From Parcubacteria group bacterium Gr01-1014_8 (GTDB lineage Bacteria; Patescibacteriota; Minisyncoccia; Phycocordibacterales; UBA2100), in NCBI GenBank assembly GCA_007376385.1, contig VMGC01000001.1, forward strand, positions 224,001-288,000: a stretch of 64,000 bases of DNA. The letters are read 5' to 3'. Of this stretch, positions 5,571-63,721 are shown piece by piece. The notes under the pieces were generated by a model. The model saw only the letters and a list, made by a program, of their open reading frames with translations. It made no database searches and was not told the DNA's origin. Both the position numbers and the translations under genes were made by a program. Every line of letters starts with the position of its first letter. Position 1 is the first letter of the stretch.

Positions 5571-5702
5571 TCCAAAAAAGTCCAATTGCGTCGTTGCGAG
5601 CTGTGGTACTCCCTCACAATACGTCATGTATTGTTCGGTTCGTTCCTCGCTCGCGCCTAGCATTCGGAGCTTTTTGAAACAGTTTCGGGGCATCAGAACA
5701 GC

Positions 5703-8649: not shown

Positions 8650-8656
8650 CTAACCT

Positions 8657-10458: not shown

Positions 10459-10459
10459 T

Positions 10460-11542: not shown

Positions 11543-11554
11543 TACAATTTCCGA

Positions 11555-12058: not shown

Positions 12059-12064
12059 TTTGAT

Positions 12065-16340: not shown

Positions 16341-16377
<37 letters not shown>

Positions 16378-16891: not shown

Positions 16892-16923
<32 letters not shown>

Positions 16924-21933: not shown

Positions 21934-23235
21934 ATGAACTATCACGTCATCGGCGGGAAAAAACTCTCTGGTTCTGTGCGGACCAATACTTCAAAGAACG
22001 CTGCAGTCGTACTGCTTGCGGCATCACTTTTGAATCGCGGAACTACAACGCTGAAGAGGATGCCGAAGATAGAGGAAGTGAACCGACTTATCGAGGTCAT
22101 GAAAAGTATCGGCGTGAAAATAGAGTGGACCGACAAGGAAATGACCATAATGCCTCCGAAAGAATTCGACCTGAAGAATGTAGACAAAGTCGCTGCGCAA
22201 AAAACCCGAAGCATAGCGCTTTTTATCGCCCCCCTTGCTCACGTGATGGATTCTTTTGACCTCCCCGCGCCAGCCGGATGCGATTTGGGCAAAAGAAGTC
22301 TCGGTGCGCACATTGACGCACTGGAGCGTCTCGGTATTTACATCAGCGGGGATGAAAAAAAGAATTCATATCACACTGAAGTTAAAGATAAGCAGCTGGC
22401 AGAAATAATCATGTATGAGGCGAGCGACACAGGCACAGAAAATGTGTTGATGGCTGCTGCTAAAATTCCCGGCAAGACGGTCATTAAATTCGCGAGTGCA
22501 AATTACATGGTTCAGGATCTATGTTTCTTTCTGGAAAAATGCGGTGTCAAAATTGAGGGCATCGGTACTTCAACGTTGGTTGTTCACGGAGTGAAAGACA
22601 TTGGTCTCGATGTTGTTGATGCGCCAAGCGAGGACCCGATTGAATCAATGTTTTTCATCTCCCTCGCCGCAACAACCGATTCGGAACTGACTATTGAAAG
22701 ATGCTCCATTGATTTTCTTGAGCTGGAGCTGCTTACTCTCGAACATATGGGCTTGAAATACAAAGTGGGAAAAAAATATCTGGCCGAAAATGGGCGCACG
22801 ACCTTATGCGATATCAAGATAAATAAATCAGAATTGCATGCACCGCCGGAGAAAATAGCTCCGCGTCCATATCCCGGCATCAACATCGATAACCTTCCGT
22901 ATTTCGTTTCTATTGCGACGCAAGCAAAAGGGGAGACGCTTATCCATGACTGGGTCTACGAGATACGCTCGTCCTACTATCTGGAAATGGCAAAGCTCGG
23001 CGCAGATGTAAAAAAACTAGACCAGCATCGCGTGTTAGTCAAAGGTCCCACGCCGTTACATGGCACAAATATCAAAGCGCCGCCTGCGTTTCGTCCTGCA
23101 TCTATCCTCCTCATCGGCATGCTCGCGGCCGAAGGCGAATCAACACTTTATGATGTGTATCCGATAAACCGCGGATATGAGAATTTGCACGAGCGATTGA
23201 AGTCGCTCGGTGCAAACATTGAAGCGATTGATTAA
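21934..23235 (+). CDS. murA: UDP-N-acetylglucosamine 1-carboxyvinyltransferase
   Basis: EPT-family fold. The GG[AG]K..G.V....SKNA motif is present as GGKKLSGSVRTNTSKNAAV, and there is a C-terminal INRGYENLHERLKSLGANI. Confidence 0.85.
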   Translation: MNYHVIGGKKLSGSVRTNTSKNAAVVLLAASLLNRGTTTLKRMPKIEEVNRLIEVMKSIGVKIEWTDKEMTIMPPKEFDLKNVDKVAAQKTRSIALFIAPLAHVMDSFDLPAPAGCDLGKRSLGAHIDALERLGIYISGDEKKNSYHTEVKDKQLAEIIMYEASDTGTENVLMAAAKIPGKTVIKFASANYMVQDLCFFLEKCGVKIEGIGTSTLVVHGVKDIGLDVVDAPSEDPIESMFFISLAATTDSELTIERCSIDFLELELLTLEHMGLKYKVGKKYLAENGRTTLCDIKINKSELHAPPEKIAPRPYPGINIDNLPYFVSIATQAKGETLIHDWVYEIRSSYYLEMAKLGADVKKLDQHRVLVKGPTPLHGTNIKAPPAFRPASILLIGMLAAEGESTLYDVYPINRGYENLHERLKSLGANIEAID

Positions 23236-29630: not shown

Positions 29631-30386
29631 GTGAAAAGAGGACCGAAACCGAAAGGGCAGGTAAGTACAAATTGGTCATCGGACTTTGCTTACGTCATTG
29701 GATTAATTACTGCCGATGGTTGTCTGCTTAATGATGGCCGACACATTGATTTTACTTCAAAAGATCGAGAGCAAGTTGCAACGTTCAAAAAATGCTTAAA
29801 GCTCAAAGCCAAGATCGGCATCAAACATTCTGGGATCGGAAACGAGTACTACCGCATACAATTTGGCGATGTTTTGTTTTATGCATTTCTTGTTAGCATC
29901 GGCTTATCTCCTGCAAAATCAAAAACAATCTCTCACGTGCTTGTTCCTGATGAATATTTTCTGGATTTTCTCAGAGGTTACTTCGATGGAGATGGCACAA
30001 GTTATTCTTTTTACGATTCAATCTTCCCAAAAAGTTACCGATTCTATATATCGTTTATGTCGGCAAGTCCCGTCTATATTCATTGGCTAAGAAAAAAGAT
30101 AAGTGATTTTTTACACATTCAGGGGCATCTCGACCGCAGTGGTAACAAGCCGTACATTCAACTCAAATTCTCAAAGAAAGAAGCAGTGATACTAGCCAAA
30201 GGTATGTACTATTCTAGCGGCATTCCGTGGTTAACGCGGAAGCATTTGAAGATTCAGCGATCTTTACGCATAATCGAGGCAGGCCGCGGTGGTGAAATTG
30301 GTAAACACGCTGCGTTCAGAACGCAGTTCTCGCAAGGGGTTGGGAGTTCGAGTCTCCCCCGCGGCACATCAAAATTTGCTCATTAA
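29631..30386 (+). CDS. LAGLIDADG homing endonuclease (double-motif type); reading frame runs through the downstream tRNA-Leu
   Basis: YVIGLITADGCLL and LRGYFDGDGTSY are two LAGLIDADG motifs. The frame is already open from 29610 inside the tRNA fragment. The last ~35 codons are tRNA-Leu sequence, and the stop at 30384 lies past the tRNA. Confidence 0.75.
   Translation: MKRGPKPKGQVSTNWSSDFAYVIGLITADGCLLNDGRHIDFTSKDREQVATFKKCLKLKAKIGIKHSGIGNEYYRIQFGDVLFYAFLVSIGLSPAKSKTISHVLVPDEYFLDFLRGYFDGDGTSYSFYDSIFPKSYRFYISFMSASPVYIHWLRKKISDFLHIQGHLDRSGNKPYIQLKFSKKEAVILAKGMYYSSGIPWLTRKHLKIQRSLRIIEAGRGGEIGKHAAFRTQFSQGVGSSSLPRGTSKFAH
30283..30366 (+). tRNA. tRNA-Leu (anticodon CAG), class II with long variable arm
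   Basis: GCCGCGG acceptor, GTGAAATTGGTAAACAC D-arm, CTGCG-TTCAGAA-CGCAG anticodon arm (CAG), ~15-nt variable arm, GGGAGTTCGAGTCTCCC T-arm, CCGCGGC-A 3' acceptor. Confidence 0.8.
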
Positions 30387-51191: not shown

Positions 51192-52820
51192 ATGCACGTC
51201 GATCAGAATAATCCGGACCGTCGTGTCACCTATTTTGCGTCCACCCATACGCGCGGCCAGCGCGAGCTTTTTGGCATTCGTGGGGAGGATCGAGGCAAGC
51301 ATATATACCTCATTGGAAAGACCGGTATGGGCAAGTCGACCCTGATGGAGAATATGGCAATTCAGGACATACAGAATGGCGAGGGCATCTGTTTTATCGA
51401 CCCGCACGGAGCAACAGCAGAAAAACTTCTCGACTTTGTACCCTACGAGCGCATCAAGGATGTCGTGTATTTTGCGCCATTTGATACCGATTACCCGTTC
51501 GGCTTTAACGTGATGGAGGACGTAGGGTATGACAAACGCCATCTTGTCGTTTCAGGACTCATCGGTGCGTTCAAGCGTATCTGGGTAGATATGTGGAGTG
51601 CTCGGATGGAATACATCCTCCAGAATACTCTCCTTGCACTTCTTGAATACCCCGACGCAACGCTCCTCGACGTGAATCGGATGCTCTCGAACAAAGAATT
51701 TCGGAAAGCGGTGATCGAGAAGATCTCGGACCCTATCGTCAAAACATTCTGGAAAGAAGAATTTGCGACCTACACCGACCGTTATACGCAAGAGGCGACG
51801 CCCGCGATACAAAACAAGGTCGGTCAATTCACTGCGAACCCGTTGGTGCGCAATATTGTGGGACAGCCAAAATCATCATTTGACCTGCGAAAGATGATGG
51901 ATGAGAAAAAGATATTCATTATCAACCTCTCGAAAGGAAGAATGGGCGAGTCGAACGCGTCGCTTCTGGGCAGCATGCTTACGGTAAAGATCTATCTCGC
52001 TGCCATGTCGCGCGCAGACGAACCCGCCTCGCGTCTCGCACAATTGCCGCGCGTCTATTTCTATGTTGATGAGTTCCAATCGATGATGAATGAGGCTTTT
52101 GCCGACATCCTTTCCGAGTCGCGAAAATATAAACTTGCGCTCACTCTCGCGAACCAATACATCGAACAGATGGAAGAAAATGTGCGTAACGCGGTTTTTG
52201 GCAACGTGGGAACGTTGATAGCGTTCCGTGTCGGCCCGTTTGACGCGGAAGTGTTAAAGACGATTTTCGAGCCGACATTCACGCCAGAGGATCTTGTGGG
52301 ATTAGGCGTTGGCCACATCTATTTGACGCTCATGATAGATGGAGTCGGTTCACAGCCTTTTTCTGCGGAGACGATACCTCCCATAGACTTGCCTTCTGTC
52401 TCGTATCGGCAAGATGTCGTGCATTATTCGCGGGCAACATACGGGCGTCCTCGGGCGGAAATGGAGACGCTTGTATTGAAGCGGCAGGAGGATTTTGCGC
52501 CGCTTTCCAAACAGGACAGGAAGAAGGCGCAAGCGGCAAAAAGGCCGGATGAGGCGGAGATGCCACATAGAGAGGAGGGTTCGAGTGCGGATCGCGCCGC
52601 CTTGCGTGCGGCATTAAGTGCGGCCAAGACAGAGGCGCCGAACATGAATGGCAAGACGCCAATTGAGATCCTTCGCGCACGCAAGGCGGCGAAGGAAGCG
52701 CGCTCATCGCACGGCGCTGATGCACAATCGCCTCCAAAGGCGGCGCAGCAGGAACAGCGAGAAGGAGAAATATCACCGGAAGTGCTGCAAAGGATCCTTC
52801 GCGGCAACGATCCAGTATGA
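51192..52820 (+). CDS. Soluble TraD/VirD4-like P-loop ATPase (FtsK/HerA superfamily, DUF87/TraG-D_C-type) with a low-complexity Lys/Ala-rich tail
   Basis: Walker A YLIGKTGMGKST...FIDPHG and Walker B VYFYVDEFQ. There are no N-terminal TM helices. The C-terminal ~120 aa are K/A/E-rich. Confidence 0.55.
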   Translation: MHVDQNNPDRRVTYFASTHTRGQRELFGIRGEDRGKHIYLIGKTGMGKSTLMENMAIQDIQNGEGICFIDPHGATAEKLLDFVPYERIKDVVYFAPFDTDYPFGFNVMEDVGYDKRHLVVSGLIGAFKRIWVDMWSARMEYILQNTLLALLEYPDATLLDVNRMLSNKEFRKAVIEKISDPIVKTFWKEEFATYTDRYTQEATPAIQNKVGQFTANPLVRNIVGQPKSSFDLRKMMDEKKIFIINLSKGRMGESNASLLGSMLTVKIYLAAMSRADEPASRLAQLPRVYFYVDEFQSMMNEAFADILSESRKYKLALTLANQYIEQMEENVRNAVFGNVGTLIAFRVGPFDAEVLKTIFEPTFTPEDLVGLGVGHIYLTLMIDGVGSQPFSAETIPPIDLPSVSYRQDVVHYSRATYGRPRAEMETLVLKRQEDFAPLSKQDRKKAQAAKRPDEAEMPHREEGSSADRAALRAALSAAKTEAPNMNGKTPIEILRARKAAKEARSSHGADAQSPPKAAQQEQREGEISPEVLQRILRGNDPV

Positions 52821-53764
52821 TTCCGCAGAGAACTCTGTTGTTATCAATAGCAGCGTTGTTTGTTCCGGGTGCTGTGTCCGCGCAAGTCGTCATTACCGAA
52901 TTGATGTACGACCTTTCTGAGGGCTCTGATACAGGGCGCGAATGGATAGAAGTATGGAATAGCGGAACAGAGCCCATAGAGCTTACAAACTGGAAGTTGT
53001 TAGAAGCGAATACGAACCATGGCATAAACGCAGTAGGAACTGAAACGCTGGCCCCCGGCGAGTATGCAGTTATCGCTGACAATCCGGCAAAATTTAAAAA
53101 CGATTGGCCTTCTTTTTCGGGAATATTATTTGATTCTTCTTTTTCTCTGAATAATGCCGGTGAACAGTTGATTCTGCGTTGCTGTGGAAAAGAGCTAAGC
53201 GATAAGGATTCGGTGACGTATTCGAGCGAGTGGGGAGGTGCGGGAGACGGCGCGTCGCTCGCGAAAAGCGGTTCATCGTTCATTGCGGCGCAGCCTTCGC
53301 CGGGCTCGGGCTCAGTTGTTGCATTTGCTGTTCCTGAACCTGAATTGCGGTCAGAACCGCCACCTCAACAAAAAGCAGTACAGCAAGAAATTGCAAAGAA
53401 ATCGGAACCGGACAATAAAGAGAGTCCCGCACAAGATCCGAGCGCGGATGTTGCTTCGCAAGTTACAACAGCTCCATCTGTGCAAAAACAAGATGAGGCT
53501 CCAAAAAAGATAGCAAAGAAAACCACCCCTTCTGCTCAAAAAGACCCCGTGCAGAATTCTGAAGAGGAGGTCATTGTTGAGGCCACCGATACAAAGGGCG
53601 TAATAAGCGATAGCAATCAGGCCGCTGCGGTAGCGAGCACGGAAACGAATAACGTGATGTGGTGGGGAGGAGCAGTCACGCTTACAGCCCTCGGGGCAGG
53701 GGCAGTAGTCTTTCTACAGCGAAGCAGAAAAAAGGAATGGGATATTGTTGAGGAAAAAGAGTAG
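52817..53764 (+). CDS. Lamin-tail-domain (LTD) surface protein with signal peptide and C-terminal TM anchor
   Basis: Signal peptide, VVITELMYDLSEGSDTGREWIEVWNSGTEPIELTNWKL...APGEYAVIA (LTD signature), an acidic/low-complexity linker and a C-terminal hydrophobic helix. The start overlaps the ATPase stop. Confidence 0.7.
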   Translation: MIPQRTLLLSIAALFVPGAVSAQVVITELMYDLSEGSDTGREWIEVWNSGTEPIELTNWKLLEANTNHGINAVGTETLAPGEYAVIADNPAKFKNDWPSFSGILFDSSFSLNNAGEQLILRCCGKELSDKDSVTYSSEWGGAGDGASLAKSGSSFIAAQPSPGSGSVVAFAVPEPELRSEPPPQQKAVQQEIAKKSEPDNKESPAQDPSADVASQVTTAPSVQKQDEAPKKIAKKTTPSAQKDPVQNSEEEVIVEATDTKGVISDSNQAAAVASTETNNVMWWGGAVTLTALGAGAVVFLQRSRKKEWDIVEEKE

Positions 53765-53908: not shown

Positions 53909-54784
53909 ATGGAAATGCGAAATACAGAGAGGAAAACGATCCTCGTTACGGGAGGCGCGGGATTTGTCGGCTCGCATTTGTGCCGTAGGCTTGTGAGAGA
54001 TGGTCACAAAGTCATTTCGCTCGACAACTACTTCACTGGCTCGAAAGAAAATCATGTCGAGGGCGTTGAGTATCGAGAAGGACACACGAAGGATATCGAG
54101 GAGCACGTTACAGAAACACCCGACCTCATCTATCATCTCGGCGAATATTCCCGTGTTGAGATAAGTTTGAATGAGCCTGCGCTCGTGTGGGATCTGAACA
54201 AAGCCGGCACCTTCGGCGTTCTTGAGTTTTGGCGCAAGAAAGGCTGCAAGCTGGTGTATGCAGGCTCGTCGACGAAATTCGGCGACGGCGGGATGGGTCG
54301 CGACCAAAGTCCGTATGCATGGACGAAGGCGTCGAATACTGAACTTACAAGAAACTACGGTGCTTGGTACAAGCTGCCGTATGCCATCACATATTTCTAC
54401 AATGTGTATGGCCCCGGAGAGAGGGCGGGGGCGTATGGAACTCTTATCGAGATATTCAGACAAAAATTCTTGAAGAAAGAACCATTGACCGTGGTTGCAC
54501 CGGGAACGCAAAAAAGGAACTTCACGTATATCGACGATATTATCGAGGGATTAGTCCTGGTCGGCGAAAAAGGAGAAGGAGATGATTTTGGGCTTGGCGA
54601 TGTGCGGGAATATTCGGTGCTTGAGATCGCAAAGATGTTCGGCGGCCCTGTCGAAATGCTCCCGACCAGGGCCGGGAATCGCATGAGCTCTTCTGTTGAT
54701 ACGTCAAAAGCATCAGCCATCGGATGGAGCGTCAAGCACAGCGTCGAGGACTACATCAAGAACATTATCTCTGCGGGAACATGA
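53909..54784 (+). CDS. NAD-dependent epimerase/dehydratase, UDP-glucuronate decarboxylase (UXS)-like
   Basis: ILVTGGAGFVGSHL Rossmann motif, and SLDNYFTGSKENH typical of UXS/ArnA-type decarboxylases. Confidence 0.7.
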   Translation: MEMRNTERKTILVTGGAGFVGSHLCRRLVRDGHKVISLDNYFTGSKENHVEGVEYREGHTKDIEEHVTETPDLIYHLGEYSRVEISLNEPALVWDLNKAGTFGVLEFWRKKGCKLVYAGSSTKFGDGGMGRDQSPYAWTKASNTELTRNYGAWYKLPYAITYFYNVYGPGERAGAYGTLIEIFRQKFLKKEPLTVVAPGTQKRNFTYIDDIIEGLVLVGEKGEGDDFGLGDVREYSVLEIAKMFGGPVEMLPTRAGNRMSSSVDTSKASAIGWSVKHSVEDYIKNIISAGT

Positions 54785-54825: not shown

Positions 54826-56094
54826 ATGGAGAAAGAAAATGAAGCTCATTCCTCTGAATCGAAGGGTATATCTCATGGGGTGAAGCGCGTTTTAATTTTC
54901 TCCCTAGGATATTTTCCGAATGCCGTCGGGGGCGCAGAAGTCGCTATCAAAGAGATAACGCAGCGCATTCCAGATATCGAGTTCCACATGGTGACGAATC
55001 GCTACGATTCGACACTGCCGAAGGTAGAGAAAATCGGCAGCATACTCGTACACCGCATCGGCATCAGTTCGAAGAGGCCTTCGATAGCTGATCTGCGCCG
55101 GTGGCCGCTGCACCTCAACAAATTTTTGTATCAATTTCTTGCAGCGTGGAAAGCGATCAAGCTCCATCGAACATATAAGTACGATGCACTGTGGGCGATG
55201 ATGGCGCATTCATGCGGCGTGCCAGCCGCGATATTCAAAATGAGGAATATGGATGTGCCCTACGTGCTAACGCTCCAAGAAGGTGATCCGCCTGCCTATA
55301 TTGAGAGAAAGATGTGGCTTCTGTGGCCCTTCTTCAAACGAGCGTTTACCTCGGCCGATATCGTTCAGGCGATCTCGACGTTTCTTGGAAAATGGGCGAC
55401 GCACCGCGGCTTCAAAGGACCCTTGGAAATAATTCCAAATGCAGTTGATATTCAGCATTTTTCCGAAGAACCGCCGCTGTATTTGGTGAATGAAATAAAA
55501 GATGGACTCAGTAAGAGAATGGGGGACGTATTTGTGATAACAACGTCGCGTTTGGTACATAAGAATGCCGTGGACGATGTCATTCGAGCGCTTCCGAAAC
55601 TCCAAGAGAATGTGAAGTTCATTATTCTCGGCGTCGGACCGGACGAAGCTAAACTAAAAAAACTGGCGAAAGATCTGAATGTCGCGAAGCGGGTTCAATT
55701 TGTGGGGCAAGTGAGCCATGCCGATTTGCCTAAATATTTGAAGGCGTGCGATATTTTTATCCGTCCGTCGCGCTCTGAAGGCATGGGCAACTCCTTTGTT
55801 GAAGCGATGGCGGTGGGGCTACCGGTCGTCGCAACACAAGAAGGCGGCATTGCCGATTTTCTATTCGACGAGCGTAGGGATCCCGATAAGCCAGTGACGG
55901 GGTGGGCAGTGGACAAGGATTCGCCGGAACAAATAGTGCTTACGATAAAGGAGATCATCTCGCGGCCGGAAAAAGTGCGCGCGGTAGTCGCGACGGCGCG
56001 GGAGACGGTGAAAGAGAAGTATGATTGGGATATTATCGCGGGCGATATGTGGGAGAAAGTGTTTGCGAGATTGTTTGAAGTTCGCTCGAAATGA
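54826..56094 (+). CDS. Glycosyltransferase family 4 (GT-B)
   Basis: C-terminal GT4 signature EGMGNSFVEAMAVGLPVVAT. Confidence 0.8.
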   Translation: MEKENEAHSSESKGISHGVKRVLIFSLGYFPNAVGGAEVAIKEITQRIPDIEFHMVTNRYDSTLPKVEKIGSILVHRIGISSKRPSIADLRRWPLHLNKFLYQFLAAWKAIKLHRTYKYDALWAMMAHSCGVPAAIFKMRNMDVPYVLTLQEGDPPAYIERKMWLLWPFFKRAFTSADIVQAISTFLGKWATHRGFKGPLEIIPNAVDIQHFSEEPPLYLVNEIKDGLSKRMGDVFVITTSRLVHKNAVDDVIRALPKLQENVKFIILGVGPDEAKLKKLAKDLNVAKRVQFVGQVSHADLPKYLKACDIFIRPSRSEGMGNSFVEAMAVGLPVVATQEGGIADFLFDERRDPDKPVTGWAVDKDSPEQIVLTIKEIISRPEKVRAVVATARETVKEKYDWDIIAGDMWEKVFARLFEVRSK

Positions 56095-56363: not shown

Positions 56364-57503
56364 ATGCGCATTCTTATCGCGACAGGAATTTTTGAACCTG
56401 AAGCGGGCGGGCCAGCGACATACACGCCCAAAATAGCGGCAAAACTGGTCCAAGCGGGCAATGAAGTTACAGTTATTACTTATTCTGATAAGAAAAAACA
56501 CGATCTTGACTCAAGATATCCCTTTCGGTTGATACGAGTCGTTCGAGGAAAATACAAGCTCGCGAATTATTATTCTTTCTTTCGAGCAGTCTCGCCGGAA
56601 TTGGTTGGAGTAGATGTCACGTATAGCCTGGATTGGATAGCTGCGGGCCTCCCTCTCACTCTTGCAGCGATGATAAAGAATATCCCTGTCGTCATCCGCG
56701 TGGGCGGGGATTACATTTGGGAAAAATATCTGCAGTCCGGCGGGTCTCCGATGCCTCTTGCCGAGTTCAATGAACGCGGCCTGTATAAACATCAAAGAAT
56801 ACTTTTTTGGATAATTATCGTCGTATTGAGGCGCGCGTTCGTCGTGTTCAACAGCGATGCGGAGCGGGATATGTACCGCCGCTTGTATGGTCTACGAGAG
56901 GAGAGGACCGGCGTCATACACAATCCTATGCCGGAGAAGGGTTGGCTAGGAGTTGTGCGTGAGAAACCGAACAATGAACTGGTGTTTGCGGGGCGATTCA
57001 TAGCGATGAAAAACATCACGTCGCTCCTTGCGGCATATGCGACGGCGCGCACTCCATTTCGTCTTGTGCTGATGGGAGAAGGTCCGGAAGAACAGAGGAT
57101 ACGAGGGGCTATCAAAGCGCTAAAGCTCGAAGAAAAGGTATCTATATATCCGCCCATGAGGCAGCAAGAACTTTTTGAAAGGATAAAGAATTCTCGTGCG
57201 CTTGTGTTGCCGAGCTGGACTGATATTGCCCCGAACCAAGTCAGTGAAGCCATCGCGCTCGGCATTCCGATCCTTGTTACCAAAGAGAATTTTCTCGTCT
57301 TTAGAGACCAATTGCCAGACATGCTCGACCCGGCATCCGTCGAAGACATCCGCCAAAAACTGGAAATGCTTGCTGACGAGATGAGGTACCAGAGTTTTGC
57401 CGAGAAGTGCCGTCGCATTGAATTTAAGAATAGTTGGGACGATGTCGTTACGAAGCATCTTGGTGTTTTTGGGCACGTACTTTCGAAGGGCACGCGTCAT
57501 TGA
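56364..57503 (+). CDS. Glycosyltransferase family 4 (GT-B)
   Basis: MRILIATGIFEPEAGGPAT N-terminus typical of GT4. Confidence 0.8.
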   Translation: MRILIATGIFEPEAGGPATYTPKIAAKLVQAGNEVTVITYSDKKKHDLDSRYPFRLIRVVRGKYKLANYYSFFRAVSPELVGVDVTYSLDWIAAGLPLTLAAMIKNIPVVIRVGGDYIWEKYLQSGGSPMPLAEFNERGLYKHQRILFWIIIVVLRRAFVVFNSDAERDMYRRLYGLREERTGVIHNPMPEKGWLGVVREKPNNELVFAGRFIAMKNITSLLAAYATARTPFRLVLMGEGPEEQRIRGAIKALKLEEKVSIYPPMRQQELFERIKNSRALVLPSWTDIAPNQVSEAIALGIPILVTKENFLVFRDQLPDMLDPASVEDIRQKLEMLADEMRYQSFAEKCRRIEFKNSWDDVVTKHLGVFGHVLSKGTRH

Positions 57504-57542: not shown

Positions 57543-59513
57543 ATGCGCATCTTAAGTATTTCCAGTGATTGGAACGTCTTTAGTGAAGACAGTGCCGTCG
57601 CGAGACGCCAGCGTCTGCAGGCTTCAACCGTAGAGCGGTTCGATGTGTTCATGCCGCATGGGCCCGACGAGACCATTCATATCGCAGGAAACGGGACCAT
57701 GCGCGGGTTTGGTCCCGGCAAATTGCGAGGCATGTTTCGCATGTTATGGTCCGCATTCAGGATGCAAAGACCGGATATCGTTTCTTCACAAGACCCATTC
57801 TTTCTAGGACTTCTTGCCTGGAAGATCGCAAAAGTGCGGGGAGCAAAACTGCATATACAGATACACACCGATCTTTTTGACCCGCATTTTGCAGCGCATT
57901 CTTTCACCAATCGAATTCGATTGCTGCTCGCGCGTTTCGTTCTCTCGCAAGCAGATTGCGTTCGCGTCGTGTCGGAGCGCATTAAGCGCTCATTGGATAA
58001 ATTGCATCTTCGTGTCCCGGTTTCTGTTCTTCCGGTTTTTATTGATGCGGAGGTCATTGACGCGGCGCAACCTTTGCAGAAACGCAGCGTATATCCCGAT
58101 TTCGAGAAAATAATTCTAGTCGTCAGCAGACTCGAGCCGGAAAAGAATGTTACTGCCGCCCTTCGCGCTCTGCCGGACATATTGAAAGCGCAGCCGGGCA
58201 CCGGGCTCGTCATCGTCGGCGATGGCTCTTTGCGCGAGCAGCTCGAACGTCTTGCGAAAGAGCTCGGCATTGAGAAACGCGTTGCTTTTGCAGGCTCTAC
58301 AAAGCCATATCCATACTACAAAGCTTCAGATCTATTACTTTCGACCTCTGATTACGAAGGATATGGGATGGTGGTGGTAGAAGCGCTCTATGCAGGATGT
58401 CCTGTCATCTCGTTCGATACTGGCGTCGCTCGCGAAGCAGGTGCCATAATCGTGACTCCAGAGGTTCTTGCGAGCACTGCGGCTGCCACGTTATCAGAAG
58501 GCCGCCGTGGGAAACTCGCTTTTACTTTGCCGAGCGAACAGGAATATCGTGACCTATGGCACTCACAGATCGCGCTTACGCTGGCACTGAAGAGTTCTGC
58601 CTCCGCGCCAAAAGCGGCATCGAGAAAGGCGTTGAAAATAGGTTTTATCGGGCAAGGCTTCATCGGCAAGAATTACGCGGATGACCTCGAGCGACGCGGT
58701 ATCTCGGTCACACGGTATGCTCTCGAAGAACCGTATCGGCAAAATAAAGACAAGATAAAAGATCGCAACATCGTTTTCATTGCCGTTCCAACACCGACCA
58801 CACCGAAAGGGTTCGACTATTCGATTGTGCGAGAGGCTGTCGGTCTTGTCGGGAAGGGAAGTGTTGCCGTCATCAAATCCACGCTTGCCCCGGGCACGAC
58901 AGAAAAGATACAGAAAGAATTCCCGGGCGTCATCGTGATGCACTCTCCCGAATTTCTGCGGGAAGCAACGGCGGCGTTTGATGCTGCGAGACCGGATAGG
59001 AATGTCATCGGGCTTGCCATCGATTCGCCCGAGAACAGAGAGCGTGCAAAGGACGTTCTTTCCATTCTGCCGTCTGCTCCGTTCGAGCTCATTTCAACGT
59101 CGAGAGAAGCGGAACTTATTAAGTACGCGGGGAATGCGTGGCTGTATATGAAAGTCGTATACGCGAATATGCTGTACGACCTTTCAGAGCGTTTGCATAT
59201 CAATTATCAAAGCGTGCGAGAGGGTCTTGCCGCGGACCCGCGCGTTGGAAGGTCGCACCTAGATCCGATCCACGCCAGCGGGCATCCTGGAGCTAATCCG
59301 GGTCGTGGGGCGGGAGGTCACTGTTTCATCAAAGATTTTGCCGCACTTCGCATGGAGTATGAGCAAGCTTTGCCGGATGATACTGCCGGAATCGCAGCCT
59401 TCCGTAAACTCGAGGAGAAAAATGTGCAGCTGCTTCTTGAGAGCGACAAAGACCTCGAACTCCTGCGCGGTGTATACGGAGATGAACTAGAGAATTTCCG
59501 AAGGAAGAAATAA
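57543..59513 (+). CDS. Fusion protein: N-terminal GT4 glycosyltransferase plus C-terminal UDP-glucose/GDP-mannose dehydrogenase-like domain
   Basis: Residues 1-330: GT4 (EGYGMVVVEALYAGCPVIS). Residues ~345-656: KIGFIGQGFIGKNYADDL NAD-binding, IVFIAVPTP, STLAPGTT, and catalytic-Cys motif GAGGHCFIKD (compare UGDH GGSCFxKD). Only ~65 aa follow the Cys, so the C-terminal UDP-binding domain looks truncated. Confidence 0.65.
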   Translation: MRILSISSDWNVFSEDSAVARRQRLQASTVERFDVFMPHGPDETIHIAGNGTMRGFGPGKLRGMFRMLWSAFRMQRPDIVSSQDPFFLGLLAWKIAKVRGAKLHIQIHTDLFDPHFAAHSFTNRIRLLLARFVLSQADCVRVVSERIKRSLDKLHLRVPVSVLPVFIDAEVIDAAQPLQKRSVYPDFEKIILVVSRLEPEKNVTAALRALPDILKAQPGTGLVIVGDGSLREQLERLAKELGIEKRVAFAGSTKPYPYYKASDLLLSTSDYEGYGMVVVEALYAGCPVISFDTGVAREAGAIIVTPEVLASTAAATLSEGRRGKLAFTLPSEQEYRDLWHSQIALTLALKSSASAPKAASRKALKIGFIGQGFIGKNYADDLERRGISVTRYALEEPYRQNKDKIKDRNIVFIAVPTPTTPKGFDYSIVREAVGLVGKGSVAVIKSTLAPGTTEKIQKEFPGVIVMHSPEFLREATAAFDAARPDRNVIGLAIDSPENRERAKDVLSILPSAPFELISTSREAELIKYAGNAWLYMKVVYANMLYDLSERLHINYQSVREGLAADPRVGRSHLDPIHASGHPGANPGRGAGGHCFIKDFAALRMEYEQALPDDTAGIAAFRKLEEKNVQLLLESDKDLELLRGVYGDELENFRRKK

Positions 59514-59517
59514 GTAC

Positions 59518-60669
59518 TTGCCCCGTGAGATAACTCACTCAGCGATGAATTCTAAATCTAGTATGAGTCATGATACGTCGAATGAGGAGGGAATGCGGAC
59601 CGGACTATCTCATGGGGTAAACCTACTCGTATGCGCGCAGACGGTAGATATTAAAGATCCGTTCAATGGCTTTTTTGTCGAATGGCTCCGAGAAATGTCG
59701 AGTCATTTTTCCAGCGTCCACGTCATCAGCCTCTCTGCCGGCGAATATTATCTTCCTTCAAATGTCCGAGTTCTCTCTCTTGGAAAGGAATCGGTGAGAG
59801 GTCCGCGCTTTGTCGTACGGTTCCGCTACATCTGGCTCTTACTTCAATACAGCTGGTCTCTGCGCCGTGAATACGATTCAGTGTTCGTGCATCAAAGTCA
59901 GGAGTTTATATTAAGCGCAGGATTTCTGTGGGCGCTTCTTCGAAAGCCTGTGTACCTGTGGCGCAATCACTATGCAGGAAATATCCTCACCGATATCGCC
60001 GCATACTTTTCGCGAAAGGTTTTCTATACCTCACATTTTTCCTATACCGCAAAATACAAGCATTCGGTTGCCATGCCTGTCGGTGTCGATGTTGAACAAT
60101 TCGCCCCAGGAGGGGATGTTGAGCGTAGAGCGCGTTCTATTCTTTTCCTTGGTCGCATCACACCTTCCAAGCGTCCGCATATGTTGCTTGAAGCGTTGTC
60201 GATAGTGCAGAAAAAGTCGATTTCTTTCAAAGCATCTCTCTACGGCTCATACCTTCCTTCCGATAGTACATATCGCGAGGAGCTTATTCAGAAAGTGAAT
60301 ACATCTGCTTTGAAAGACAGTGTCACATTTCATGAGGGGATACCGCACAAAGATGTGCCGCGTGTTTTCAATCAGTTCGAGCTGTACGTGAATCTTGCGC
60401 AAAGCGGGATGCTCGATAAGACGATATTTGAAGCCGCGGCATGCGGCGCGGTTCCGTTAACTGCGAGCAAGGACTATGCAGACATGGCAGGGGAACAATT
60501 TCTTTTTGAGAATGCAGAGGACCTCGCGAAGAAACTTGAACAATTCTTGGGAATGCCAGAAAACAAAAAAGACGAACTTCGTTCGCGCATTCGCGCTCTT
60601 GTCGTGCAAAAACACTCGCTCAAAGAATTGGGTCGTCTGCTCTCTGTTCAGATGGTTGCGTTGAATTGA
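59518..60669 (+). CDS. Glycosyltransferase family 4-like
   Basis: FLGRITPSKRPHML... and FEAAACGAVPLTAS (E-x7-E-like GT4 C-terminal motif). Confidence 0.6.
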   Translation: MPREITHSAMNSKSSMSHDTSNEEGMRTGLSHGVNLLVCAQTVDIKDPFNGFFVEWLREMSSHFSSVHVISLSAGEYYLPSNVRVLSLGKESVRGPRFVVRFRYIWLLLQYSWSLRREYDSVFVHQSQEFILSAGFLWALLRKPVYLWRNHYAGNILTDIAAYFSRKVFYTSHFSYTAKYKHSVAMPVGVDVEQFAPGGDVERRARSILFLGRITPSKRPHMLLEALSIVQKKSISFKASLYGSYLPSDSTYREELIQKVNTSALKDSVTFHEGIPHKDVPRVFNQFELYVNLAQSGMLDKTIFEAAACGAVPLTASKDYADMAGEQFLFENAEDLAKKLEQFLGMPENKKDELRSRIRALVVQKHSLKELGRLLSVQMVALN

Positions 60670-60803
60670 TTTTAGGCAGCTATTTGCCTACACTGACGAA
60701 GCATGTCATCTCTAGCGGAAAGAAACATAGTCGTAACCCCGATACCACAGCGCTTTGCGCTGGCTACGGGGCAGGCCGGCTCATTTCACGCCGTACTTTA
60801 AAT

Positions 60804-61793
60804 ATGTTGGACAAAAAAACTATCGTCGTAACTGGAGGTTTAGGGCATATTGGCTCGCGCCTTATCCGTTCGTTCGGCTCCACTGTGAATGAGATACGGA
60901 TAGTTGATAACCTCGCAACACAGCGATACCCCTCACTCTTTGATTTGCCCGAAACACCGCGAGTCCGATTTTATGAGGAGGATATTCTGACGGCGAATCT
61001 CGGAGAGATTTTCAAAGGTGCTGATGTAGTGGTGCATCTCGCGGCGATTACGAATGCTGAAGCGACTGTCGGGAAAGAGGAAGAAACAGAGGCGGTGAAT
61101 TTTGAAGGCTTGAAACGCGTTGCTGACGCGTGCGAAAAGACAGGAGCCAAGCTCATTTTTCCCTCGACGACCAGTGTGTACGGCAGTCAGGAAGCAGTTG
61201 TCGACGAGACGTGCGCAGACCTTCAGCCTCAAAGCCCATATGCTGTCTCAAAATTGAAGGCAGAGGAATACCTGACGGGGAAGCGCGGAACGGGCTTAAA
61301 GTTCGTCACTCTCCGACTCGGTACAATATTCGGCTGGTCAGTGGGAATTCGTTTTCATACGGCAGTCAATAAATTTATCTGGCAGGCGGTGAACGGGAAG
61401 GAGATAACGGTCTGGAAGACAGCGTGGGAACAGAAGCGCCCATATCTCGATCTTGGTGACTGTGTCCGCGTATTTAATCATGTCATCGAGAGTGACCGAG
61501 CGTCGAGCGAGGAAATACTGAGCGCAGCAGCGCGAACGTACGATTTGTTCGACGGAGAGATATACAATGTCGTCACGAAGAATTTTACCGTGCGCGACGT
61601 TGTCGAAGGCATTCAGAAATTTGTTCCCTCGCTTCGCGTCAAATACGTTGATTCAAAGATAATGAACCAGCTGTCTTATGATGTAGTCGCCGACAAAATT
61701 GCAAGCAAAGGGTTTGTGCCAAAAGGAGACCTTAGTGTTGCGATAGGAGAGACAATCGATAAATTAAAAACGATTGTACGCACTTCAAATTAA
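60804..61793 (+). CDS. NAD-dependent sugar epimerase/dehydratase
   Basis: Start at ATG 60804 (MLDKKTIVVTGGLGHIGSRL). Has the YAVSK catalytic YxxxK. The listed ORF from 60666 is an upstream extension. Confidence 0.7.
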   Translation: MLDKKTIVVTGGLGHIGSRLIRSFGSTVNEIRIVDNLATQRYPSLFDLPETPRVRFYEEDILTANLGEIFKGADVVVHLAAITNAEATVGKEEETEAVNFEGLKRVADACEKTGAKLIFPSTTSVYGSQEAVVDETCADLQPQSPYAVSKLKAEEYLTGKRGTGLKFVTLRLGTIFGWSVGIRFHTAVNKFIWQAVNGKEITVWKTAWEQKRPYLDLGDCVRVFNHVIESDRASSEEILSAAARTYDLFDGEIYNVVTKNFTVRDVVEGIQKFVPSLRVKYVDSKIMNQLSYDVVADKIASKGFVPKGDLSVAIGETIDKLKTIVRTSN

Positions 61794-61796: not shown

Positions 61797-62972
61797 ATGC
61801 GAATACCTCTCAAACCAGTCATCGATTTTGGGAGAATGCCAATCGCAAATGCTTTTCTTGCCCCTGGACAATTCGAGGGTGAATATTTTTTCGATATGGT
61901 GGTCGGGTACGATGCCGAAACCGATGCCATCGGATTAGTGAACACCGTTCCGCCGGAGAAAATGTTCCACGAGAACTACGCGTTCTTTTCATCCACTTCA
62001 AAAGGAATGCAAAAGCATTTTTGCGAGACTGCGGAAAAACTGAAACCTCTTGCCGGGAGCGGAATTGTGGTTGAGATGGGGAGTAACGATGGCATCATGT
62101 TGGATGCATGGAAAGATCTAGGCGTGCGGGCGATAGGGGTCGAGCCTTCTAAGAATGTTGCCGCGGCGGCGCGAGCGCGCGGCCACAAGGTCATAACAGA
62201 GTTCATGAGCGAAAAGGTGGCAGACGAAATACTTTCGAGTGGAGAAGTGTCGTTCGTGTTTGGCGCGAATGTCTCGTGCCATATCGAGGATATAGAAACG
62301 TATTTCAAAAGCATTGCGAAGCTCATAGGAAAAAAGGGCGTGTTCGTTTTTGAAGACCCGTATTTTCTCGATATCGTCGAAAAGACATCCTACGACCAAG
62401 TCTACGATGAGCACGTTTGGTATTTCACGATCTCGTTCATCAACAAAATGTTTGCACCTCTTGGATATCATGTTTTTGACTGCGAGCATGTTCTTGTGCA
62501 TGGGGGAGAGTTGCGCATGTATGTGGGGCACAAAGACACACATACCGTGAAGTCAGTCGTTGAGGAATGGCAGAAGAAAGAAACCGACCTCCCTCAAAAA
62601 CTTGAACTCCTAAAGGCGAATATTCTTCTATCGAAGAGTCGTATGCGGGAGCTCCTCGTTGGTCTCAAGAAAGACGGGAAGAGAATGTGCGGGTTTGGCG
62701 CATCCTCAAAAGGAGTCATCGTATGTAATTTTTGCGAGATAGGTCCTGATTTAATTCCTTTCATCACGGATAACACGCCCGCAAAGCAGGGAAAATACTA
62801 CCCAGGGGTTCATATACCGGTTCGTCCGCAGGAAGAATTCAAAGATGTTGATGTTGCGGTGCTTTTTGCGTGGAACCATCTTGTCGAGATAGAAAAACTG
62901 CCTCTTATTCAGGAATTTCGTAAGGCAGGAGGGAAATTGGTCACGCACGTACCTGAGCCACATCTTTTCTAG
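61797..62972 (+). CDS. NDP-sugar C-methyltransferase (TylCIII/NovU-like class I SAM methyltransferase with C-terminal C-methyltransferase domain)
   Basis: The N-terminal LKPVIDFGRMPIANAF element resembles the substrate-binding N-terminus of sugar 3-C-methyltransferases. SAM motif VVEMGSNDGIML. C-terminal domain as in that family. Confidence 0.65.
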   Translation: MRIPLKPVIDFGRMPIANAFLAPGQFEGEYFFDMVVGYDAETDAIGLVNTVPPEKMFHENYAFFSSTSKGMQKHFCETAEKLKPLAGSGIVVEMGSNDGIMLDAWKDLGVRAIGVEPSKNVAAAARARGHKVITEFMSEKVADEILSSGEVSFVFGANVSCHIEDIETYFKSIAKLIGKKGVFVFEDPYFLDIVEKTSYDQVYDEHVWYFTISFINKMFAPLGYHVFDCEHVLVHGGELRMYVGHKDTHTVKSVVEEWQKKETDLPQKLELLKANILLSKSRMRELLVGLKKDGKRMCGFGASSKGVIVCNFCEIGPDLIPFITDNTPAKQGKYYPGVHIPVRPQEEFKDVDVAVLFAWNHLVEIEKLPLIQEFRKAGGKLVTHVPEPHLF

Positions 62973-62992: not shown

Positions 62993-63721
62993 ATGACGAA
63001 GATTCTGGTTACGGGTGGTTCCGGTCTGCTCGGCGGACATATTCTCGCCCTCGAGTCTTCGCTCATTTCGCCATCTCATTCGGAGATGGATATCACTGAT
63101 AAGGCGAGCGTCGAAATGGCTTTTGATAAATATCAGCCTGATACAGTGCTTCATCTTGCCGCCGCGACGAAGCCCCCAGAACATGAGAAAACACCCGCGA
63201 TCGGTATTGAGAACAACATCATAGGGACAGCGAATGTCGCGCTCGCGGCACTGAAAAGAAACGTCCGAATGGTCTACACCTCAACCGACTACTTATATAG
63301 CGGGAAAGGACCGCATACAGAGAACGAGCCTATGCTCCCGCCGTATAAATTTGCGTGGTCAAAGCTTGGAGGAGAATCTTGTGTTGCGCTTTTGCCAAAC
63401 AGTTTGATCCTTCGTCTGTCGTTCGGTCCTAGGCCTTTTCCATGGGAGAAAGTGTACAAAGACCAATTGAATTCGAAATTGTATGTGGATGAGATAGCGC
63501 CGCTCGTGCTTGCTCTAGCTCAAGGCAGTGAAGTGGGTATTATGAACGTCGGCGGTCCCCGAAATACGCTCGAGGAATATGCGCGGCGTACCAAGCCCAA
63601 TATCGAAACGATTGAAAAGCCTGAATGGGTGCCAGCGGATACGAGCCTCGATATTTCACGTATGTGCGATGTTCTCGGCATTACAGATGCGCACACGCTT
63701 TTGAAACATTACATACTATGA
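62993..63721 (+). CDS. dTDP-4-dehydrorhamnose reductase (RmlD)-like NAD(P)-dependent reductase
   Basis: ILVTGGSGLLGG N-terminus. Fits the RmlD substrate-binding-domain family in size and pattern. Confidence 0.65.
   Translation: MTKILVTGGSGLLGGHILALESSLISPSHSEMDITDKASVEMAFDKYQPDTVLHLAAATKPPEHEKTPAIGIENNIIGTANVALAALKRNVRMVYTSTDYLYSGKGPHTENEPMLPPYKFAWSKLGGESCVALLPNSLILRLSFGPRPFPWEKVYKDQLNSKLYVDEIAPLVLALAQGSEVGIMNVGGPRNTLEEYARRTKPNIETIEKPEWVPADTSLDISRMCDVLGITDAHTLLKHYIL

Follow-up and report, generated by a model that had tools for sequence, protein, structure and literature searches.

The locus described here poses the question of whether one open reading frame truly encodes two enzymes of glycan synthesis and, if so, whether the second of them, a UDP-glucose dehydrogenase-like module that ends early, could still be an enzyme and what it would act on. 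UDP-glucose dehydrogenase is the textbook example of an enzyme with three domains, of which the C-terminal one is regarded as essential for holding the nucleotide sugar. The window that we analysed, a 64,000-nt stretch of contig VMGC01000001.1 from Parcubacteria group bacterium Gr01-1014_8, encodes in a single ORF of 656 aa a GT4 glycosyltransferase followed by a short dehydrogenase (Table 1). The NCBI entry for the identical protein reads 'MAG: UDPglucose 6-dehydrogenase [Parcubacteria group bacterium Gr01-1014_8]'.

Table 1. Features of the fusion gene and its neighbours (positions in the window; L001 and L003 are two related loci)
Feature	Position	Strand	Basis
SDR, nucleotide-sugar epimerase/dehydratase type, 291 aa, head of the cassette	53909..54784	+	Pfam; same position in L001, L003
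GT4, 422 aa, cassette member	54826..56094	+	Pfam
GT4, 379 aa, cassette member, immediately upstream of the fusion gene	56364..57503	+	Pfam
Whole ORF, GT4 plus short UGDH-like dehydrogenase	57543..59513	+	ORF listing, Pfam, homologues
GT4 domain (GT-B fold, retaining-type), residues 1-345	57543..58577	+	PF13439, PF13579, PF00534, PF13692
RLEPEK (R196/K201)	58128-58145		coordinates checked by translation
EX7E motif (E272...E280)	58356-58382		coordinates checked by translation
Inter-domain linker, residues 346-362, TLALKSSASAPKAASRK	58578..58628	+	AF2 pLDDT, pairwise identity
NAD-binding Rossmann domain, residues 363-519	58629..59099	+	PF03721, profile-PDB alignment, invariant residues
GFIGQGFIGK	58641-58670		verified by translation
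Rossmann motif AVPTP	58782-58796		coordinates checked
Rossmann motif KST	58875-58883		coordinates checked
Rossmann motif PEFLRE	58947-58964		coordinates checked
Central helical (dimerisation/catalytic) domain, residues 520-656	59100..59510	+	
EAELIKYAGN (K527, N531), central domain	59106-59135		
RGAGGHCFIKD (C594, D598)	59304-59336		verified by translation
Family-specific conserved tail KDLELLRGVYG, residues 636-646	59448-59480		
GT4-like, only the C-terminal Glycos_transf_1 half recognised	59518..60669	+	Pfam
SDR	60666-61793	+	Pfam
Sugar C-methyltransferase	61797-62972	+	Pfam
RmlD-like reductase	62993-63721	+	Pfam

The fusion is a genuine, conserved two-enzyme protein of Parcubacteria. A sequence-only reading had proposed that one ORF joins a GT4 to a UDP-sugar-dehydrogenase-like domain, which both the Pfam matches and the homologues bear out, and had raised the concern that a sequencing error near 58570 might have merged two genes. 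In many relatives the two parts are indeed separate genes merely 4-150 bp apart, so that one indel could merge them. However, the fusion recurs at the same length and with a comparable linker in more than 115 clusters (90% identity clustering) from independent projects and assemblers (NCBI, JGI, ENA and Logan assemblies), at 45-79% identity; it is present in 17 of the best 80 species-representative loci, and the window shows no break in frame. Together, the clusters and the species-representative loci exclude a local frameshift or merge, and we see practically no chance that an assembly or sequencing artefact joined two neighbouring genes here. The protein has 943 homologues at E<=1e-10, and among the 120 listed all but three are full-length fusions with 45-100% identity, the exceptions being two shorter, partial proteins (P0104, P0110) and a dehydrogenase-dehydrogenase tandem without a GT4 (P0111). 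The junction in question falls in a linker of 17 residues, of which residues 350-361 have an AF2 pLDDT below 50. Mean pairwise identity across the fusion family is 15% in the linker, 56% in the GT4 half and 66% in the dehydrogenase half, the latter being under stronger conservation than the GT4 half.

Judged by its sequence, the GT4 half carries the hallmarks of a retaining, GT-B-fold enzyme, with two Rossmann-like domains, an EX7E motif and basic residues for the donor diphosphate. Pfam matches it to Glyco_transf_4 / Glyco_trans_4_4 at residues 32-170 and to Glycos_transf_1 at residues 185-298 (E 1e-29), with PF13439 at 49.4 bits, PF13579 at 45.9 and PF00534 at 103.7, each over its cut-off. 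R196, E198, K201 and E280 are each present in 77/77 fusions, and E272 in 76/77. The AF2 model is confident over residues 1-330, in agreement with the complete GT4 fold first read from the sequence over about that range. The closest matches, in sequence and in structure, are BshA, MshA and PimB' (Foldseek matched BshA and MshA with a target-normalised TM of ~0.7), which have in common with the fusion's GT4 the GT-B fold, the EX7E motif and an R/K phosphate-binding motif; identity to them is only 15-20%, however, and of these proteins the fusion's GT4 is the only one joined to a dehydrogenase. It shows no evident N-terminal Gly-rich loop, a feature typical of many GT4s, and its best NCBIfam equivalog, BshA, scores 81.6 bits against a cut-off of 273.7, with all others also far below theirs.

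The dehydrogenase half matches UDPG_MGDP_dh_N (PF03721) at residues 402-495 (E 1.4e-14, 54.5 bits against a cut-off of 27), though over profile positions 71-179 only, and the UDPG_MGDP_dh central domain (PF00984) at residues 521-608 (E 4e-16, 59.3 bits against 25.4). The NAD-binding Rossmann motif and the catalytic-Cys motif GAGGHCFIKD that had been claimed for it were both located by translation. Eighteen residues are invariant across 229 nucleotide-sugar dehydrogenases (PMC4794789), and by alignment to 1dli and 3gg2 the module retains 17 of them: G370, G372, G375, S446, T447, P469, E470, K527, N531, N542, C594, D598 and N627, each kept in 50-52 of 52 diverse short members of the family, and the less strict T417 (49/52), G592 (47/52), G591 (44/52) and E524 (40/52). 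All 17 are found in 77/77 of the fusion family. In the 1dli alignment, Thr118, Glu141, Lys204, Asn208, Cys260 and Asp264 of the Streptococcus pyogenes enzyme correspond to T447, E470, K527, N531, C594 and D598, so the comparison with UGDH structures, proposed as a check on whether the catalytic residues had been lost, found them in place. Modelled alone, the module reaches an AF2 pLDDT of 95.9 and a pTM of 0.92; the whole protein has a pTM of 0.61. We infer from its residues that the module represents a minimal form of the UDP-glucose/GDP-mannose dehydrogenase superfamily that has retained catalytic competence.

Canonical three-domain nucleotide-sugar 6-dehydrogenases (PF03721+PF00984+PF03720; TIGR03026), such as S. 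pyogenes UGDH (1dli), C. jejuni Cj1441 (7kws), S. elodea UgdG (4a7p) and human UGDH, have these 17 residues in common with the module and, like it, are found in polysaccharide gene clusters, but they are 390-490 aa long, whereas the short family measures ~290 aa. Alignments to PDB entries end at about residue 310 of the canonical chains, and the protein stops at the boundary between the central and C-domains. Where the sequence-only reading had counted ~65 residues after the Cys (62 by translation, from Cys594 to the protein end) and described an incomplete UDP-sugar-binding domain, the domain is missing as claimed, but wholly absent rather than incomplete, since Pfam finds no UDPG_MGDP_dh_C (PF03720) match in the protein. 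The module is hence without Lys320, Arg327, Asn325 and Ser329. Lys320, the sole family-invariant residue that is missing, coordinates the UDP diphosphate from the C-domain, and Arg327, in the same domain, binds the NAD pyrophosphate (PMC4794789). The Rossmann domain in turn lacks ~30 residues after beta2, corresponding to the canonical alpha2-beta3 segment with Asn39 (Pfam, profile-PDB alignment), and in place of Tyr10, conserved to 98% among canonical enzymes, Phe or Trp is found here. The protein reaches 123.9 bits with TIGR03026, the NCBIfam model for nucleotide-sugar dehydrogenases, whose cut-off is 189.8, and the UGDH equivalog models all fall far below theirs. Features of the short family's own are a longer loop before the Cys in the central domain, here carrying H577 and R588, with an invariant Arg at Cys-6, a position that Phe, Val or Pro occupies in canonical enzymes, and a family-specific tail, KD.DLL..VYG.

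We know of no canonical member that works without its UDP-binding domain. With a canonical UGDH C-domain as the query, phmmer found no separately encoded C-domain among the ORFs in all six frames of the window and 80 related loci, in a single-sequence search of limited sensitivity; nucleotide binding would therefore need a new site. A split enzyme with its UDP-binding domain encoded nearby was rejected on this result. We likewise rejected a rigid replacement of the UDP domain by the C-terminal Rossmann domain of the GT4, given a linker that is disordered and variable, the pTM of 0.61 and the standalone state of most members.

The truncation is the defining trait of a large, self-contained family and no defect of one ORF. 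The short form (~270-300 aa) occurs in at least 584 Patescibacteria loci from species-representative genomes; most of the top 150 representatives are standalone, as are 60 of the best 80 loci. One standalone member (L029) is carried by the complete Patescibacteria genome OY969413.1. The family, which belongs to the candidate phyla radiation (CPR), is apparently unstudied: a full-text search found no literature on a UGDH without a C-domain, on a GT4-dehydrogenase fusion or on UGDH in CPR bacteria, and we know of no characterised protein in which a GT4 and a dehydrogenase are covalently joined. The names that databases give these proteins are inconsistent, ranging over 'UDP-glucose 6-dehydrogenase', 'glycosyltransferase' and, for some members at JGI, '3-hydroxyisobutyrate dehydrogenase-like'.

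Of the 60 standalone loci, 22 have a fusion-type GT4 immediately upstream of the dehydrogenase and 35 have one within 7 kb, so the fusion joins what is elsewhere a conserved gene pair. This Rosetta-stone evidence strongly backs the functional link between the halves that had been suspected from the fusion itself. The uronic-acid donor could hypothetically be channelled from one half to the other; no confident interface between GT4 and dehydrogenase is predicted, and the tether between them is variable and disordered.

Other fusion partners bear on the substrate. Full-length SDRs that most resemble the UDP-sugar 4-epimerases TviC, WbpP, WbgU and GalE are joined to the dehydrogenase both in members of the same subfamily (L038, L052, L069, P0162) and in a sister subfamily (P0278-P0292, at least 16 clusters), and the same SDR type is present in 35/80 loci. 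These SDRs score under the curated cut-offs of the NCBIfam equivalogs, so that their own substrate is likewise a prediction; the fusions to TviC/WbpP-like 4-epimerases nevertheless favour a UDP-sugar. In the Vi antigen (TviB-TviC) and P. aeruginosa O6 (WbpO-WbpP) pathways a dehydrogenase is likewise teamed with a 4-epimerase, and the short dehydrogenases fused to or beside TviC-, WbpP- or WbgU-like SDRs suggest by analogy the same logic, in which C6 of a UDP-sugar is oxidised and C4 then epimerised. There, however, the dehydrogenase has all three domains and is a protein separate from the epimerase, whereas the partner in the window is a GT4 and no epimerase. A Ddl-type ATP-grasp ligase fused to a short dehydrogenase (P0126) and AsnB-like amidotransferases in 10/80 loci may hint at a carboxylate product. 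Further partners are APS kinase and, in the sister subfamily, XRE-type HTH domains.

The gene neighbourhood is that of a glycan cassette, whose synteny is kept at 46% identity (L001, L003). For the SDR at its head, PDB matches to UDP-glucose 4-epimerase and UDP-glucuronate decarboxylase are tied (E ~4e-30) and no obvious 'STSEVYG' motif of UXS was found, so that this gene is unusable as evidence for UDP-GlcA. The 422-aa GT4 has ~402-aa homologues in 41/80 related loci, and the 379-aa GT4 has ~367-aa homologues in 45/80, mostly at -2 or -1. The GT4-like ORF downstream opens 4 nt past the stop codon of the fusion, its true start probably being further in, near 59593; in 13/17 fused and 9/60 standalone loci a homologue comes right after the dehydrogenase, in many cases overlapping its stop, and homologues are found at +1 or +2 in 39 loci, as well as in L001 and L003. 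The pair of methyltransferase and SDR also adjoins the cassette in L003. Specific functional names for the neighbouring enzymes were dropped, as their NCBIfam matches are sub-threshold only. A scan of 53.5-64 kb for promoters and terminators gave sites no more often than chance. Operons for teichuronic acid and capsule (B. subtilis tuaD with tuaC/tuaH; streptococcal hasB with hasA) similarly combine a uronic-acid-forming dehydrogenase with the transferases that consume the product, but as separate, full-length enzymes; the top NCBIfam match of the 422-aa GT4 is TuaC, weak and far under the curated cut-off.

We propose, with about even confidence, that the protein is bifunctional and belongs to a conserved Patescibacteria cassette for cell-envelope glycan, comprising several GT4 transferases, a dehydrogenase and nucleotide-sugar SDRs, in which a UDP-hexose would be oxidised and the GT4 would use the product or share the assembly line. 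The analysis shows the architecture, its conservation, the fold, the kept catalytic residues, the pairing of the genes and the spread of the family; what the enzyme does, the kind of substrate it takes, the mode of nucleotide binding and the sugar moved by the GT4 are what we infer in this scheme. NAD+ would be held by the GxGxxG motif and E395, and the hexose C6 hydroxyl would be converted to a carboxylate by two-step oxidation via a thiohemiacetal/thioester on Cys594, with T447, E470, K527, N531 and D598 assisting. The enzyme would most likely be a dimer formed through the central helices, in favour of which we count the tandem protein P0111. We commit to a substrate that is still a UDP-hexose (UDP-Glc or UDP-HexNAc), with the lost contacts of Lys320 and other C-domain residues putatively replaced by the pre-Cys loop (H577 and the invariant R588) and the tail (K636, D637 and Y645); the roles of R588, H577, K636 and Y645 are proposed from conservation. 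The GT4, flexibly tethered, would use the UDP-uronic acid or work in the same assembly line with the neighbouring GT4s.

Against this proposal stand the loss of the C-domain with Lys320 and Arg327, the TIGR03026 score under its cut-off, the replacement of Tyr10 and the pTM of 0.61. The main rival, which we consider rather unlikely, is that oxidation follows transfer: the module would oxidise C6 of a hexose already placed, at the membrane surface, on an acceptor that is lipid-linked or of another kind, making the uronic acid in situ, with the GT4 providing proximity to the substrate and the module dispensing with nucleotide recognition. Exactly the nucleotide-binding domain and the only invariant contact to the UDP diphosphate have been lost, while all residues for the sugar C6 and NAD are kept, and the coupling to one GT4 type, fused or adjacent, is tight and recurrent. 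Several related loci also carry GtrA-like, polyprenyl-phosphate GT2-like and PMT_2/ArnT-like genes, which shows that lipid-linked sugars are handled there. However, most members are standalone and 25/60 standalone loci have no such GT4 within 7 kb, and the recurrent fusions to soluble UDP-sugar 4-epimerase-like SDRs suit a nucleotide-sugar pool. In canonical enzymes the Gly equivalent to G591 bonds the UMP ribose and the Glu equivalent to E474 lies near the diphosphate (PMC4794789). G591 is kept in 77/77 fusions and 44/52 diverse members, and E474 in 75/77 fusions, though in just 32/52 diverse members, which also speaks against a module that has abandoned the nucleotide. Nor do we know of any precedent, or find one in the literature, for a member of the UGDH superfamily that oxidises C6 with NAD once the sugar has been transferred. 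The wider form of this idea, in which the short dehydrogenases would be a Patescibacteria-wide class that has given up nucleotide recognition and oxidises lipid- or glycan-attached hexoses with a dedicated GT4, seems to us unlikely.

It is quite improbable that the module acts as a dehydrogenase on a non-nucleotide small molecule (a sugar phosphate, polyol or hydroxy-acid), its shape having converged on that of two-domain beta-hydroxyacid dehydrogenases. The weak match of its profile to HIBADH (E 3e-6), the '3-hydroxyisobutyrate dehydrogenase-like' label that JGI gives some members and the mixed partners (Ddl, APS kinase, HTH) would fit such a role, but the sequence resemblance and all the signatures of catalysis (the Cys nucleophile, K..N and GGxCxxKD) are those of UGDH and not of HIBADH, Pfam NAD_binding_2 (PF03446) reaches 15 bits on the module, under its cut-off of 21, and the gene context is overwhelmingly that of glycan biosynthesis. 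HIBADH, tartronate semialdehyde reductase and short 6PGDH-like proteins have 14-18% identity to the module and lack both the Cys nucleophile and GGxCxxKD. The alternative offered by the sequence-only reading, a repurposed binding module, here a non-catalytic NAD(H)- or sugar-binding domain for regulation or scaffolding, could draw on the loss of the substrate-binding domain, the unconserved Tyr10 equivalent and the XRE-type HTH fusions of the sister subfamily, as expected for ligand sensors. We consider it very improbable, since the nucleophile Cys, the general-base Asp, the Lys/Asn pair, Thr and Glu are invariant over 45-100% identity in both subfamilies, the HTH-fused members included (77/77 in fusions and nearly so in the 52 diverse members), and a binding-only role would not require them; the dehydrogenase is, moreover, the more conserved half.

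A whole family, with hundreds of species-level representatives across Patescibacteria, thus dispenses with the C-domain and part of the Rossmann fold while its catalytic residues are still strongly constrained. If, as we prefer, the short enzymes bind UDP-sugars, they would do so in a new way and thereby mark out the smallest catalytic unit of the family; alternatively they act on a different substrate class, and either outcome would be new enzymology. Should oxidation instead follow transfer, it would constitute a post-glycosylation route to acidic envelope glycans that needs no pool of UDP-uronic acid. The GT4 fusion, with two activities in one polypeptide, offers a ready handle on the biochemistry of the pathway, which is relevant to envelope construction in the ultra-small, host-dependent CPR bacteria, the gene being part of one of their most conserved glycan cassettes.

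The ORF encodes a complete GT4 glycosyltransferase and, after it, the NAD-binding and central domains of the three-domain UDP-glucose/GDP-mannose dehydrogenase family (Pfam), and the sequence-only reading, which had described a single GT4-dehydrogenase ORF with NAD-binding and catalytic-Cys motifs, was accurate on this point (ORF call, Pfam, translation). That reading also took the dehydrogenase to be truncated, with an incomplete UDP-binding domain. The truncation is borne out, with 62 residues following Cys594 in the translation, but the C-terminal UDP-binding domain is missing altogether, having no Pfam match in the 656-aa protein. The Rossmann domain is shortened as well, and its start (residues 365-396) gives a weak Pfam match to NAD_binding_2 alone. 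Unlike UGDH family members, the module lacks the UDP-binding domain and scores below the curated cut-off of the NCBIfam nucleotide-sugar dehydrogenase model (123.9 versus 189.8 bits). The GT4 half shows the fold, EX7E motif and R/K of retaining GT4 enzymes and is nearest to BshA and MshA (15-20% identity).

Features of the fusion ORF and of other parts of the window (res, residues of the fusion protein)
Feature	Position	Strand	Basis or remark
GT4-dehydrogenase fusion ORF	57543..59513	+	uninterrupted, 656 aa (ORF listing)
Glyco_transf_4 / Glyco_trans_4_4	res 32-170		Pfam
Glycos_transf_1	res 185-298		Pfam, E 1e-29
Dehydrogenase NAD-binding domain	res 402-495		Pfam, profile positions 71-179 only
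Dehydrogenase central domain	res 521-608		Pfam
GFIGQGFIGK	58641-58670	+	exact-coordinate translation
RGAGGHCFIKD	59304-59336	+	exact-coordinate translation
Terminal KDLELLRGVYG	59448-59480	+	exact-coordinate translation
AVPTP, KST, PEFLRE, EAELIKYAGN	within fusion ORF	+	exact-coordinate translation
TrwB/VirD4-like ATPase and lamin-tail-domain (LTD) protein	51192-53764		
Aromatic gene run	3093-14863 and 21934-23235		prephenate dehydrogenase-like, aminotransferase, anthranilate synthase I and II, TrpD, EPSP synthase, chorismate synthase, TrpB-like, TrpC, second EPSP-synthase-family (MurA-like)
16S rRNA gene	16063-17422		1360 nt suffice to span the whole Rfam model (positions 1-1533)
Group II intron domains D1-D4	17639-17726		42 bits, E 3e-4
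ORF	17713-18168		
ORF	19114-20778		no Pfam match
ORF	29631-30386		weak LAGLIDADG-like match
tRNA gene	30283-30366		same strand as ORF 29631-30386

An identical protein is deposited at NCBI as 'MAG: UDPglucose 6-dehydrogenase [Parcubacteria group bacterium Gr01-1014_8]' (contig of 407,897 bp). Its domain content recurs, at ~645-660 aa, in more than 115 further clusters (90% identity), which are 79% down to 45% identical to the window protein and carry the names Kaiserbacteria, Paceibacterota, Parcubacteria or Patescibacteria. Since these clusters come from NCBI, JGI, ENA and Logan assemblies, we rejected the reading of the fusion as an artefact, to which we give practically no chance. Across 77 aligned fusions, mean pairwise identity is 15% in the linker (residues 346-362), 56% in the GT4 half and 66% in the dehydrogenase half, a sequence profile typical of two constrained domains on a free tether. 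The AF2 model agrees with this picture: both halves are confidently predicted, residues 350-361 are disordered, and the pTM rises from 0.61 for the full-length protein to 0.92 for the dehydrogenase module alone (module pLDDT 95.9).

An exhaustive phmmer search of 1.84 billion cluster representatives, with residues 341-656 as query, gave 136 matches at E<1e-30, mostly standalone proteins of 270-300 aa matching end-to-end; judged from these matches, the 'truncated' dehydrogenase is a family rather than the oddity of one ORF. With 52 aligned diverse short dehydrogenases as query, at least 584 loci were found in a genome set with one representative for each species. The best 80 of these comprise records without an informative name and, where informatively named, belong to Patescibacteria MAGs (Kaiser-, Nomura-, Falkow-, Adler-, Taylor-, Buchanan-, Portnoy- and Staskawiczbacteria, and Paceibacterota), and include several TPA records labelled Saccharibacteria or Gammaproteobacteria; their dehydrogenase ORFs comprise 60 standalone genes, 17 GT4-dehydrogenase fusions and five of other architecture. 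Two copies occur in locus L025 (4920-5780 and 5912-7876), where the standalone copy immediately precedes a GT4-dehydrogenase fusion, and in locus L075 (5109-6047 and 7001-7779). Further fusion partners in the family are a GT4 in reverse order and full-length nucleotide-sugar SDRs. Proteins P0126, P0188, P0194, P0111 and P0133 add a GT2, APS kinase, a D-Ala-D-Ala-ligase-type ATP-grasp, a second copy of the module (tandem, 606 aa) and an unrecognised 380-aa C-terminal extension.

Members of a sister subfamily of ~275 aa (motif RGYGGKCLPKD), Uhrbacteria included, share these features; some stand alone, others carry a WbpP-like SDR (at least 16 clusters) or an XRE-type HTH as fusion partner. In the last group (P0311, P0317, P0320, P0324, P0338 and P0214; 361-372 aa) the HTH is N-terminal and all catalytic residues are intact in the subfamily alignment; such proteins could be metabolite-sensing regulators built on an enzyme, or moonlighting enzymes. 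Some standalone members (P0191, P0202) have Trp where Gly is invariant (GTWFIGW, GRWANGHC), which suggests that UGA was rendered as Trp though it stands for Gly in these organisms (genetic code 25). In that case the family would also occur in Gracilibacteria/Absconditabacteria-type lineages.

Alignments to 4a7p, 3vtf, 3phl, 1dli and 3gg2 cover canonical residues ~1-35 and ~65-310 and end at the boundary of the UDP-binding domain. Eighteen residues are invariant among 229 nucleotide-sugar dehydrogenases (PMC4794789), and 17 of them, counted out residue by residue along the alignments to 1dli and 3gg2, lie in the module: G370, G372, G375, T417, S446, T447, P469 and E470 in the NAD-binding part, and E524, K527, N531, N542, G591, G592, C594, D598 and N627 in the central part. 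Each is present in 77/77 fusions, and most are near-invariant among the 52 diverse members (C594, K527, T447, E470, N542 and N627 in all 52; the weakest are G591, 44/52, and E524, 40/52). The eighteenth, Lys320, which coordinates the UDP diphosphate (PMC4794789), belongs to the absent domain, as do Arg327 (NAD pyrophosphate), Asn325 and Ser329; Asn39 is lost with the alpha2-beta3 segment, and Phe or Trp takes the place of Tyr10. The loop before the Cys is longer than in canonical UGDH, and six residues before the Cys the short family has Arg (R588; 77/77 fusions, 50/52 diverse members, invariant in the sister subfamily too), a position taken by Phe, Val or Pro in canonical enzymes. Other marks of the family are H577 and, in the tail, K636 (50/52), D637, Y645 and G646. 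We infer that some of these residues may stand in for the lost nucleotide contacts.

The complete catalytic set, the higher conservation of the dehydrogenase half and its self-contained predicted fold argue for an active enzyme, likely comparable to UGDH in its working; that the module serves as a binding domain is highly improbable. It would oxidise a primary alcohol to an acid with NAD+, passing through a thiohemiacetal and a thioester on the Cys, chemistry established for UGDH (PMC3265891, PMC4794789).

As to the substrate, full-length SDRs are fusion partners of the module both in its own subfamily (L038, L052, L069, P0162) and in the sister subfamily. The best matches of these partners are T. 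maritima GalE (5e-57), capsule protein 10ke, WbpP (1e-51) and WbgU, and TviC and GalE are their best NCBIfam models, with similar scores that are both under cut-off. TviB-TviC and WbpO-WbpP are known to follow the logic of a dehydrogenase paired with a 4-epimerase. This logic, the resemblance of the fused SDRs to TviC, WbpP and GalE, and the retention of G591, the equivalent of the Gly bonding the UMP ribose, point to a UDP-sugar; E474, the equivalent of a Glu near the diphosphate, is present in 75/77 fusions and 32/52 diverse members. Against a UDP-sugar stands the loss of the nucleotide-holding domain, for which any replacement is putative. The sugar might instead be oxidised after transfer, which we consider rather unlikely, or the substrate might be a different small molecule, which is less probable again. 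Conversion of a UDP-hexose to a UDP-hexuronate, consumed by the tethered GT4 or by the cassette, has in our judgement about an even chance. The ATP-grasp fusion and AsnB-like amidotransferases hint at a carboxylate product. The ATP-grasp partner is similar to the ligases that form glucuronamide for the C. jejuni capsule. Glucuronamide is found in that capsule (PMC12096443).

An HMM built from the GT4 half was run on the best 80 of the at least 584 loci. Directly upstream of the dehydrogenase, on the same strand (-36 to +146 bp), it found full-length GT4s of this type (scores 180-364) in 22 of the 60 standalone loci, and within 7 kb in 13 more. The fusion thus joins a conserved gene pair, from which simple loss of a stop codon would be enough to make it. 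Clustering of neighbour genes across the same 80 loci brought out a recurring cassette: the ~402-aa GT4 (window 54826) in 41, the ~367-aa GT4 (window 56364) in 45, the fusion-type GT4 at position -1 in 28, a homologue of the GT4-like gene at window 59518 in 39 (position +1 or +2) and a GalE/WbpP-type SDR in 35. Loci L001 and L003 share the window order (TrwB-like ATPase, LTD protein, SDR, GT4(s), fusion, GT4-like) at 46-58% identity. In the window, the cassette genes share a strand and are spaced by -4 to 41 bp, bar one gap of 269 bp, and the coupling-protein ATPase and LTD genes lie directly upstream. The TTG start of the downstream GT4-like gene at 59518 was called mechanically and is probably too early, homologues starting at ~Met26 (~59593); from there, the gap after the fusion gene would be ~80 nt, not 4 nt. 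Among loci L007-L086, GtrA-like small membrane proteins lie directly downstream of the dehydrogenase in 11, AsnB-like amidotransferases (~614 aa) nearby in 10, and PMT_2/ArnT-like proteins occur as GtrA+PMT_2 fusions in eight; such neighbours suggest that some forms of the cassette include polyprenyl-phosphate-sugar steps and amidated uronic acids.

Elsewhere in the window, the group II intron match begins ~200 nt downstream of the 16S rRNA gene and is followed by two ORFs; no 23S rRNA was found within the window. To our knowledge, Parcubacteria genomes typically lack amino-acid biosynthesis, and the shikimate/tryptophan/aromatic-amino-acid gene run is unusual there. The 3' end of the LAGLIDADG-like ORF runs into a tRNA gene, and the call or extent of this ORF is doubtful.

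Full-text literature searches returned nothing on a UGDH without its C-domain, a GT4-dehydrogenase fusion or UGDH in CPR bacteria; the sequences themselves are already in databases, under inconsistent automatic names. For the specialist, the surprise lies in a family that sheds its substrate-holding domain yet stays strongly constrained.
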